Shown here: one piece after another, positions 7,880-27,432 of the stretch
How the letters are laid out: each line of letters starts with the position of its first letter
Numbering within the stretch: position 1 is the stretch's first letter
Source of the DNA: Promethearchaeota archaeon
GTDB lineage: Archaea; Asgardarchaeota; Lokiarchaeia; Sigyniarchaeales; SOKP01
Assembly (NCBI GenBank): GCA_048941015.1
Contig: JBHLNZ010000042.1
Coordinates: 1 to 27,432 of the forward strand
Direction: 5' to 3'
DNA: 27,432 bases
Program-made: the position numbers and the translations under genes
The notes under the pieces: generated by a model
Database searches by the model: none
Told to the model about the DNA's origin: nothing
What the model saw: only the letters and a program-made list of their open reading frames with translations

Positions 7880-8683
7880 ATTTCTGGATTTATAGGTAAA
7901 AATATTAGGTTAGAAAGGATTATTAATAGAGAAACAAGGAGAACTATTATTGTTCCAATGGATCATGGACTTACAGTAGGTCCAATTAAAGGAATAGATA
8001 AGGATTTAGGTGTAATGGTTAATAAGATAGCATTAGGTGGTGCTAATGCAATTTTAGGTCATGTGGGAATCCCTCTTTATGCTCATAGAGGATACGGGCC
8101 AGATATAGGTTTGATTTTACATCTCTCAGGCTCTACTTCTTTAAGTCCAGAAACTAACTATAAAGTTTTGGTAAATACTGTATTAGAAGCTCTCAAATTT
8201 GGTGCTGATGGCGTATCACTCCATATTAATATAGGAACAAAAACAGATCCTGAAATGTTGGAAACATTGGGAAAAGTTTCAAGAGAATGCCGTGAATATG
8301 GTATGCCTTTATTAGCTATGATGTATCCAAGAGGTGAAAATATTGAAGATGAATATGATGTTGAAGTTGTGAAAATAACGGCAAGGGTAGCGGCAGAATT
8401 GGGAGCAGATATTGTAAAAACAAATTGGACAGGAGATCCTGATTCTTTTAAGGAGGTTGTTGATGGATGCATGGCCCCAGTTATAATAGCAGGTGGTGAA
8501 AAAGCAGGAGTTAGAAATATTTTGGAAATAACTAAAGAATCTATTGATGTTGGAGGCGCAGGAGTAGCATATGGCAGGAATGTCTTTCAAGCGGAAGACC
8601 CAACTAAATTGGTAAGAGCACTTTATTTCATTGTACATCAGAATTATGATGTCAATGAAGCTATAAAAGAGGCAAAACTTTAA
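7880..8683 (+). CDS. aroA': 2-amino-3,7-dideoxy-D-threo-hept-6-ulosonate (ADH) synthase, DhnA/class I aldolase family; probable ATT start
   Basis: MDHG, HLSGSTSL, GMPLLAMMYPRG, ELGADIVKT, AGG and GRNVFQ motifs. The conserved N-terminus GKNIRLERIINRETRRTIIVP lies in frame upstream of the track's ATG at 7958. Confidence 0.85.
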   Translation: MSGFIGKNIRLERIINRETRRTIIVPMDHGLTVGPIKGIDKDLGVMVNKIALGGANAILGHVGIPLYAHRGYGPDIGLILHLSGSTSLSPETNYKVLVNTVLEALKFGADGVSLHINIGTKTDPEMLETLGKVSRECREYGMPLLAMMYPRGENIEDEYDVEVVKITARVAAELGADIVKTNWTGDPDSFKEVVDGCMAPVIIAGGEKAGVRNILEITKESIDVGGAGVAYGRNVFQAEDPTKLVRALYFIVHQNYDVNEAIKEAKL

Positions 8684-9100: not shown

Positions 9101-9232
9101 TGCAGGGAGTGGGATTTGAACCCACGTACTCCTATAAGACCGGATGGCTCATCAATAATCGCTTGAATCAACGGAGATTATATAAAGTAGATCTTGAGTC
9201 CGGCACCGTTGACCAGGCTTGGTTATCCCTGC
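9101..9232 (-). tRNA. tRNA-Leu(CAA) with a 47-nt canonical 37/38 intron (9146..9192)
   Basis: Acceptor stem GCAGGGA/TCCCTGC; anticodon arm CCGGA-CT CAA G^A-TCCGG; BHB central helix CTCA/TGAG; long variable arm; GGGTTCAAATCCC. Mature length 85 nt. Confidence 0.93.
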
Positions 9233-18497: not shown

Positions 18498-18839
18498 CTA
18501 TGACTTACTCATCTTTTCTTTTATTAATATATTTTCTTCGGGAAATCCTAGATCTATTAAAAATTTTTTGAGCTTAAATTTATGATCTCCTTGGAGTTCA
18601 ATTTCATTACCTCTCACAGTCCCTCCAGAAGCACATTTTTTCTTAGCTTTTGTTAAAATATCCTTTAAATTTGCATCAAAATTACCTTCAAAAGAAATTA
18701 CTGTAACTACGCGCCCCCATTTTCTTTTATCGTTAAAAATAAGTATCTGCTGTTCATCAGCACCTAAGCTATCACATATACATAGTTCTTTTGGAAAACT
18801 ACATATGGGACAAATCTCTTCGTCTTTAATACTCTTTAT
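18498..18839 (-). CDS. sui1: Translation initiation factor aIF1 (SUI1/eIF1/YciH family); non-AUG start (ATA 18837-18839 or ATT 18828-18830)
   Basis: Not in the ORF track. Manual translation: (I)KS(I)KDEEICPICSFPKELCICDSLGADEQQILIFNDKRKWGRVVTVISFEGNFDANLKDILTKAKKKCASGGTVRGNEIELQGDHKFKLKKFLIDLGFPEENILIKEKMSKS*. It has the archaeal aIF1 Cys knuckle and the GGTV...IELQGDH SUI1 motifs. Confidence 0.93.
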   Translation of the reverse strand: MKSIKDEEICPICSFPKELCICDSLGADEQQILIFNDKRKWGRVVTVISFEGNFDANLKDILTKAKKKCASGGTVRGNEIELQGDHKFKLKKFLIDLGFPEENILIKEKMSKS

Positions 18840-19060
18840 TCACAACCTTTATTATTAAAAACATATTAAAATTCAGTTCTAAAAAATAATAGAACAAAAT
18901 CTTATAAAAATCTTTTTTATTTTAATTATATCTTTTTAAAAACATAAATTTAAATTTTACAAGACGGTTAGAGATTTATAAGTTTAATTCTACCATTTAT
19001 AAAAAATTTTTATTTATGTATAATCATTAGAAGTATTTACAGATTTATGGTCTCAGGAAA

Positions 19061-19961: not shown

Positions 19962-20036
19962 TGCTCCCGCCGGGATTCGAACCCGGGTCGCCAGGGTGAA
20001 GGCCTAGCATGCTTGGCCGGACTACACTACAGGAGC
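19962..20036 (-). tRNA. tRNA-Glu(TTC), with an atypical C33
   Basis: GCTCCTG TA GTGTAGTCCGGCCAAGCAT G CTAGG CC TTC AC CCTGG CGAC CCGGG TTCGAAT CCCGG CGGGAGC A; archaeal Glu-type D arm. Confidence 0.88.
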
Positions 20037-20199: not shown

Positions 20200-20284
20200 T
20201 GCGGGAAGGGAGATTTGAACTCCCGAACTCCTACGAGACTGGATTCTAAGTCCAGCGCCTTTAACCAAACTTGGCAATTCCCGC
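20200..20284 (-). tRNA. tRNA-Leu(TAG)
   Basis: Acceptor stem GCGGGAA/TTCCCGC; anticodon arm CTGGA CT TAG AA TCCAG; long variable arm; GGGAGTTCAAATCTCCC. 85 nt, no intron. Confidence 0.93.
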
Positions 20285-27118: not shown

Positions 27119-27220
27119 TGGACCTGACGGGAATTGAACCCGTGACCTCTTGAGTGCAATTCTTGTATATCCATCTAGGATGAATAAATGTCAAGCGATC
27201 TTCCACTGATCTACAGGCCC
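27119..27220 (-). tRNA. tRNA-Ala(TGC) with a 30-nt non-canonical 32/33 intron (27160..27189)
   Basis: Acceptor stem GGGCCTG/CAGGTCC with G3:U70; mature anticodon arm CTTGA C^T TGC AC TCAAG; BHB central helix CTTG/CAAG with bulges ACA and AAT. Mature length 72 nt. Confidence 0.92.
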
Positions 27221-27362
27221 GAAAAAACTATTTTATAATTATATAGTAAAGAGATCGATAATTAAAATTCTTTTGTTTTTAATAATTTAAAAGAAGAGAG
27301 TGGCAATTAAGAAAGTAAATTAAGATCCTAAACTATAATTTCTTCCCAGATTTTGTTAAAAA

Positions 27363-27432
<70 letters not shown>

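Follow-up and report, generated by a model that had tools for sequence, protein, structure and literature searches.

The aIF1 gene of this Lokiarchaeial genome very probably starts translation at an AUU codon, located at 18830-18828 on the minus strand of the window (the whole stretch of DNA that was analyzed, 27,432 nucleotides). As read from aligned loci, the AUU start is fixed across a Lokiarchaeial family, with AUC or AUA in rare cases, and AUG is never substituted. The gene encodes the archaeal start-codon fidelity factor aIF1, which, by homology, would have a role in start-codon selection on the 30S subunit. We consider the full account to be likely, in which translation starts at AUU, a Shine-Dalgarno (SD)-like box positions the ribosome, and a feedback on aIF1 is presumed. 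The features of the locus are given below, where g1 is the genus of the window (33 species) and g12 is the largest sister genus (41 species).

18498..18830, minus strand: aIF1/SUI1 coding sequence from AUU, 110 codons plus TAG, with an N-terminal CxxC...CxC zinc knuckle and an SUI1 domain.
18828..18830, minus strand: ATT, the putative aIF1 start codon, kept in 33/33 g1 and 41/41 g12 orthologs.
18837..18839, minus strand: ATA, directly following the in-frame TGA; not conserved; an alternative start proposed in the first-pass annotation.
18840..18845, minus strand: TTG-TGA "start-stop", in frame; a by-product of the SD-like box.
18840..18849, minus strand: SD-like box AAGGTTGTGA, 9 nt before ATT; invariant in g1 and g12.
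18826..18843, minus strand: out-of-frame mini-ORF GTG AAT AAA GAG TAT TAA, the stop of which overlaps ATT (ATTAA).
18881..18916, minus strand: promoter-like block AAAAAGATTTTTATAAGATTTTGTTCTATTATTTTTT, kept across g1 and present in g14.
18910-18901, minus strand: TATA-like TTTTTATAAG, within the promoter-like block.

An SUI1/aIF1 frame of 113 codons lies on the minus strand at 18839-18498, directly after an in-frame TGA. Its translation matched Pfam SUI1 (PF01253; E = 1.7e-16, 60.9 bits versus a curated cut-off of 25.5) and NCBIfam NF002096 (109.8 bits versus a cut-off of 98), and could be aligned end to end with aIF1 of Methanocaldococcus jannaschii (PDB 4MO0; E = 2.5e-25). In that alignment, residue 3 of the 4MO0 chain pairs with residue 5 of the window's protein as numbered from ATT, and the CPxC...CxC motif is retained. 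The protein has the architecture of archaeal aIF1, namely an N-terminal zinc knuckle and an SUI1 domain in about 100 amino acids. A search of the host genome (3.59 Mb, 95% complete, 29.4% GC) found the gene to be single-copy. The frame is intact, and its third codon positions vary like those of coding sequence.

The 5' end on the minus strand reads TTG (18845-43), TGA (18842-40), ATA (18839-37), AAG, AGT, ATT (18830-28), and the codons from ATT are ATT AAA GAC GAA GAG ATT TGT CCC ATA TGT and onward to TAG (18500-498). The first-pass annotation had described an intact frame without ATG, GTG, or TTG between the upstream TGA and the cysteine knuckle, and had concluded that a noncanonical start is needed. 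Both statements were borne out when the sequence was re-read. No canonical start occurs in frame before GTG at 18617; a protein initiated there would have only 39 amino acids, without the zinc knuckle and with the greater part of the SUI1 domain missing.

The aIF1 loci that we compared came from relatives within the order (130 places) and from 80 named GenBank records, all of them "Promethearchaeota/Promethearchaeia" MAGs (for example, Loki_b31 and Loki_b32). Every g1 and g12 ortholog shared a common layout consisting of an invariant (A)AAGGTTGTGA, a variable, purine-rich spacer of 9 nt, and ATT AAA GA. The start codon in the named records (n = 78) was ATT in 74, ATC in 3, and ATA in 1. The nearest in-frame stop comes one codon before ATT in four genera, g13, g15, g17, and g20 (TAG CCT ATT, TAG CGT ATT, or TAA AAA ATT), so that ATT is the sole near-cognate candidate there before the conserved I-C-P. 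In one genus, three species carry ATC in place of ATT. The opening reads ATA CCN AAA/AAT GA in a genus of this family and in two from the sister family, and this ATA matches, codon for codon, the ATG, GTG, or TTG of the M-P-K-D/S... orthologs in neighboring genera. ATT likewise lines up with the start codon (ATA, ATG, GTG, or TTG) of sister genera. No SUI1 match was obtained for eight g1 genomes, five of them 93-100% complete, which may reflect gaps in the assemblies or masking.

Inspection of the 5' DNA of relatives for replacement by ATG had been suggested with the first reading of this locus. ATG was found in 0 of the 105 main orthologs of the family among the aligned aIF1 loci, and 98 of the 105 had no in-frame canonical start of any kind. 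In six of the remaining seven, the in-frame GTG is that of the SD-like box, phased by an 8-nt spacer. The seventh (L043, genus g15) has GTG at the second codon position, and a canonical GTG start is possible there.

Several other readings of the 5' end were weighed against these results. The first-pass annotation had allowed initiation at either ATA or ATT; ATT stood up in the relatives and ATA did not. Initiation at ATA 18839-18837, alone or in addition to ATT, would extend the protein by 3 residues (M-K-S-I-K-D...). This ATA is in frame and near-cognate, it sits 5 nt past AGGT (an aligned spacing, d, of 3), and one NCBI aIF1 ortholog is annotated as M-K-S-I-K.... However, it is present in only 5 of 33 g1 congeners, the other 28 having AAA, AGA, or AAC, and the matching codon in most of g12 is TAA, a second in-frame stop. 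The spacing is also poor for ATA, whereas the SD-like box and ATT are invariant. We regard initiation at ATA as improbable, and the codon could give a minor, longer form of aIF1 in the window. The mini-ORF, found in most g1 and g12 loci, brings up another scenario, in which ribosomes terminating after the 5 codons from GTG 18843-18841 would re-initiate at AUU, or in which the mini-ORF would compete with aIF1. No SD is suitably spaced for its GTG, since GG ends 2 nt before that codon. Nor is the mini-ORF universal, being shortened in one g1 species, open-ended in g16 (which starts at ATC), and missing in g22; it comes into frame in those lineages with an 8-nt spacing (g14, g18, g21, and the paralogs), and its substitutions have no coding bias. 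Such a role has little likelihood, and judging from these patterns, the mini-ORF probably arises incidentally from GTGA plus ATT-A(A/G)N.

Under recoding, ribosomes would make a programmed +1 frameshift from GTG, or would read through the in-frame UGA that follows TTG or insert selenocysteine there. Many g1 species do possess an A-rich run, GTG AAA AAA G, that resembles a slippery site; the TGA comes right after TTG, and the host genome has a tRNA-Sec. The run is interrupted in the window (GTG AAT AAA G), however, and is missing in g12 (GTG ATA AGA GAG). A prfB-like programmed +1 frameshift was rejected since the spacer is variable (AAT AAA G, ATA AGA G, AAG AAA G) and has no common re-pairing site. 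UGA readthrough or selenocysteine insertion was also rejected, since g12 reads TTG TGA TAA (tandem stops) and the stop in other genera is TAG or TAA and lies elsewhere; g22 lacks the TTG of the TTG-TGA pair. TGA is a normal stop in the host genome, as it ends 409 of 2681 long ORFs. Recoding of any of these kinds is highly improbable. A selenocysteine system has been reported for Lokiarchaeota, and the tRNA-Sec of the host genome (anticodon TCA) is consistent with it; this tRNA is irrelevant to the aIF1 TGA. That the gene is dead, or that its missing start is an error of assembly or sequencing, has negligible probability. The same arrangement recurs in more than 100 independently assembled relatives, which excludes an indel artifact and chance, and the intact, coding-like frame is the sole copy in a 95%-complete genome.

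The preferred start at AUU is preceded by an imperfect SD-like box, as the first-pass annotation had noticed; on inspection, this is AAGGTTGTGA with a 2x2 mismatch to the 16S rRNA tail. The window includes, at its edge, the 3' end of the 16S rRNA (27362-27432, minus strand), with the terminus ...GGAUCACCUCCU. AGG and GUGA of the box pair with this tail, interrupted by the mismatch, and the predicted duplex energy between the aIF1 leader and the tail is -7.9 kcal/mol, stronger than that of 91% of ATG genes. The distance from GTGA-type SD to ATG is 4-9 nt genome-wide, with a peak at 5-6 nt, which places the 9-nt spacing between the box and ATT at the upper limit for this genome. Upstream of aIF1, a promoter-like block (AAAAAGATTTTTATAAGATTT...TTATTTTTT) is conserved across genera; judging by its position, transcription would start near 18879, for a predicted leader of about 49 nt. 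There is also a second TATA-like run at about 18863-18872, which would put the transcript start near GTG. RNAalifold, run on 86 distinct leaders, detected no conserved RNA structure. In the proposed mechanism, the ribosome would be positioned on an unstructured leader by the conserved, interrupted SD box AAGGUUGUGA, at a distance of 9 nt from the start, and AUU 18830-18828 would be decoded by the ordinary initiator tRNA with anticodon CAU.

Some relatives (L036, L066-L070, L080, and L085) possess a second, diverged aIF1 copy of about 60-65% identity, in which a perfect GGAGGTGA or GAGGTGA is found 8 nt before ATT or ATA. The bins with this second copy are 4-9% contaminated, and the copy is either a paralog or bin contamination; the host genome has no such copy. 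The perfect SD before ATT or ATA in the second copies is the plainest sign of SD-directed initiation at AUU, AUA, or AUC (AUH).

We performed a scan for AUH starts in the host genome that was anchored on SD motifs of at least 5 nt and read what comes next. A canonical start opening an ORF of at least 60 codons follows 1226 SD motifs. Another 83 SD motifs precede an ORF of at least 100 codons without a canonical start, defined as none upstream to the preceding stop and none in the first 15 codons. ATT, ATA, or ATC was present in the SD window of 53 of these 83 ORFs, which is a lower bound (examples are L131-L150), and the spacing of AUH peaked at 6-7 nt, as it does with ATG. The counts at spacings of 6-7 nt were 18 for ATT, 13 for ATA, and 5 for ATC; the top non-start triplet was AAA, with 6. 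The share of AUH starts among the SD-led genes of the host genome is thus at least about 4%. Pfam supported 8 of 20 tested AUH cases, in which the first canonical start lies far downstream of the domain's first residue:

ThiF: domain from residue 10, first canonical start at codon 113.
Ras-type GTPase (first): domain from residue 6, first canonical start at codon 61.
Ras-type GTPase (second): domain from residue 10, first canonical start at codon 36.
GPN-loop GTPase: domain from residue 6, first canonical start at codon 36.
ParA-like ATPase: domain from residue 7, first canonical start at codon 19.
Ferredoxin-domain protein: domain from residue 33, first canonical start at codon 101.
HxlR: domain from residue 28, first canonical start at codon 97.
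HIT: domain from residue 25, first canonical start at codon 62.

With at least 53 SD-led AUH genes other than aIF1, 8 of them supported by Pfam, these data indicate that the host organism initiates at AUH. A special initiator tRNA was considered and rejected, since the host initiator carries the normal CAU anticodon.

The window also contains a DeoC/LacD-family aldolase gene (7880-8680, plus strand) with an apparent ATT start at 7880, 4 nt past AGGTGAT. Its Pfam domain begins at residue 22 and its first canonical start is at codon 27, and it is a candidate for a second AUU-start gene within the window. ARAGORN identified only 16-19 tRNAs in the whole host genome, probably because of introns. 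Four tRNA genes are present in the window, and the three longer ones probably contain introns:

27119-27220, minus strand: tRNA gene, 102 nt.
20200-20284, minus strand: tRNA gene, 85 nt.
19962-20036, minus strand: tRNA gene, 75 nt.
9101-9232, minus strand: tRNA gene, 132 nt.

Start-codon turnover in aIF1 was compared with that of two control genes, ThiF and the GPN GTPase, in the same family:

ThiF: ATT in 17 and ATG in 10 of 30 in this family, with switches inside two genera; ATG in 3/3 in the sister family, a sample of 3 loci only under a strict E-value threshold.
GPN GTPase: ATT in 22, ATA in 4, and ATG in 3 at the aligned codon in this family (n = 30); ATG in 11 and GTG in 2 in the sister family (n = 13).
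aIF1: ATG in 0/105 in this family; AUA, UUG, GUG, or AUG in the sister family.

Two further loci of the family have ATG one codon upstream in the GPN GTPase gene. ThiF and the GPN GTPase are mostly AUH in this family and ATG or GTG in the sister family; the AUH habit is, therefore, a family trait. The control genes drift between ATT and ATG within the family and aIF1 does not, which gives limited support, from two genes and from related genomes that are non-independent samples, to selection that keeps the aIF1 start weak. The methionyl-tRNA synthetase gene (contig C105:3-1403, minus strand; L134/L224) has ATA at a spacing of 3 and CTG at a spacing of 6 after GGAGGT. It was rejected as a control gene, given that the start in relatives is a TTG located one codon further downstream, at the place of CTG in the host genome; by that correspondence, the host gene may have a CUG start. 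An alignment of 29 sequences revealed nothing obvious in the way of aIF1 loop changes specific to the AUH-using family.

The purpose of an AUU start on aIF1 can be interpreted in more than one way. Sulfolobus aIF1 makes the 30S complex reject AUU mRNA in vitro (PMC4705826), and aIF1 background for Sulfolobus, Pyrococcus, and Methanocaldococcus is available (PMC6237735). If the aIF1 of the window likewise destabilizes initiation complexes on AUU, rising aIF1 would lead to less initiation on its own mRNA, a negative feedback like those of infC and eIF1. That aIF1 limits its own synthesis through the AUU start is a tentative proposal by analogy, and we would give it somewhat less than an even chance. 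The AUU start alone does not single out aIF1, given that AUH accounts for at least about 4% of SD-led genes, and the case for feedback is weaker because AUH starts are used family-wide. Alternatively, the AUU start could be real and have no feedback role, reflecting a relaxed or drifted, family-wide use of AUH in an AT-rich (29% GC) genome, and the chance of this comes close to even. The SD-led genes without a normal start (at least 53, 8 of them Pfam-supported), with their ATG-like spacing peak, are in its favor, as are the ThiF and GPN orthologs with AUH in the family and ATG or GTG in the sister family; AUU may also not be very weak in this lineage. In contrast, aIF1 has not reverted to ATG in 105 orthologs and both control genes have, and two genera of the sister family combine AUA in aIF1 with a canonical start (ATG/GTG) in the GPN gene.

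The feedback proposal can be extended, although we think the extension unlikely. The AUU of aIF1 would be a stringency set-point that holds aIF1 where AUU is just readable. This would have enabled family-wide AUH starts for several percent of genes, the output of AUH genes would track aIF1, and the arrangement would be a forerunner of eIF1 autoregulation. If true, the closest relatives of eukaryotes would possess a set-point arrangement of this kind.

The AUH-start habit of the family is itself worth attention. Since AUH starts occur in several percent of the family's genes, Prodigal-type calls shorten or miss such genes, including aIF1, and these genomes consequently need start-codon-aware calling. 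The expectation of the first-pass annotation, that gene callers would miss or shorten aIF1, held for Prodigal-type callers, with database forms of aIF1 shortened to 73-90 amino acids. It did not hold for NCBI's pipeline (PGAP), which starts aIF1 orthologs at the matching ATT (M-K-D-D-D-I-C...) under the name "YciH". A search of the protein database returned no aIF1 product of at least 60 amino acids from the window itself.

A full-text search of the literature found no noncanonical start or autoregulation described for any archaeal aIF1 gene, and no AUH starts described in Asgard archaea. Bacteria (IF3, AUU) and eukaryotes (eIF1, poor context) provide known examples of self-limited synthesis of a fidelity factor, and none is known for archaea. 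A conserved AUU start on the Asgard aIF1, a homolog of eIF1, would fill this archaeal gap.

In bacteria, infC, which encodes IF3, has an AUU start and is subject to translational autorepression (Butler et al. 1987 and Sacerdot et al. 1996, as cited in PMC3326321). Like infC, the aIF1 gene encodes a factor that rejects noncanonical starts and itself opens at a near-cognate AUU behind an SD, and the AUU is likewise conserved over a large clade without replacement by AUG. The aIF1 fold is, however, unrelated to that of IF3, and feedback on aIF1 is proposed by analogy. Whereas 2-3 genes of E. coli have AUU, AUA, or AUC starts, dozens of genes do in this lineage. Eukaryotic eIF1 (SUI1) has an AUG in poor context and is autoregulated (Ivanov et al. 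2010 and Martin-Marcos et al. 2011, as cited in PMC3326321). aIF1 is its homolog through the SUI1 domain, and a weak start of its own would similarly couple its synthesis to start-site stringency. The weakness differs in kind, being a non-AUG codon behind an SD in aIF1 and the Kozak context on a scanned leader in eIF1. Among archaea, the window's aIF1 belongs to the same protein family and has the same architecture as the aIF1 of Sulfolobus, Pyrococcus, and Methanocaldococcus (PDB 4MO0); in contrast to its AUU, the aIF1 genes of sister Lokiarchaeial lineages use AUG, GUG, or UUG, along with the AUA noted above.
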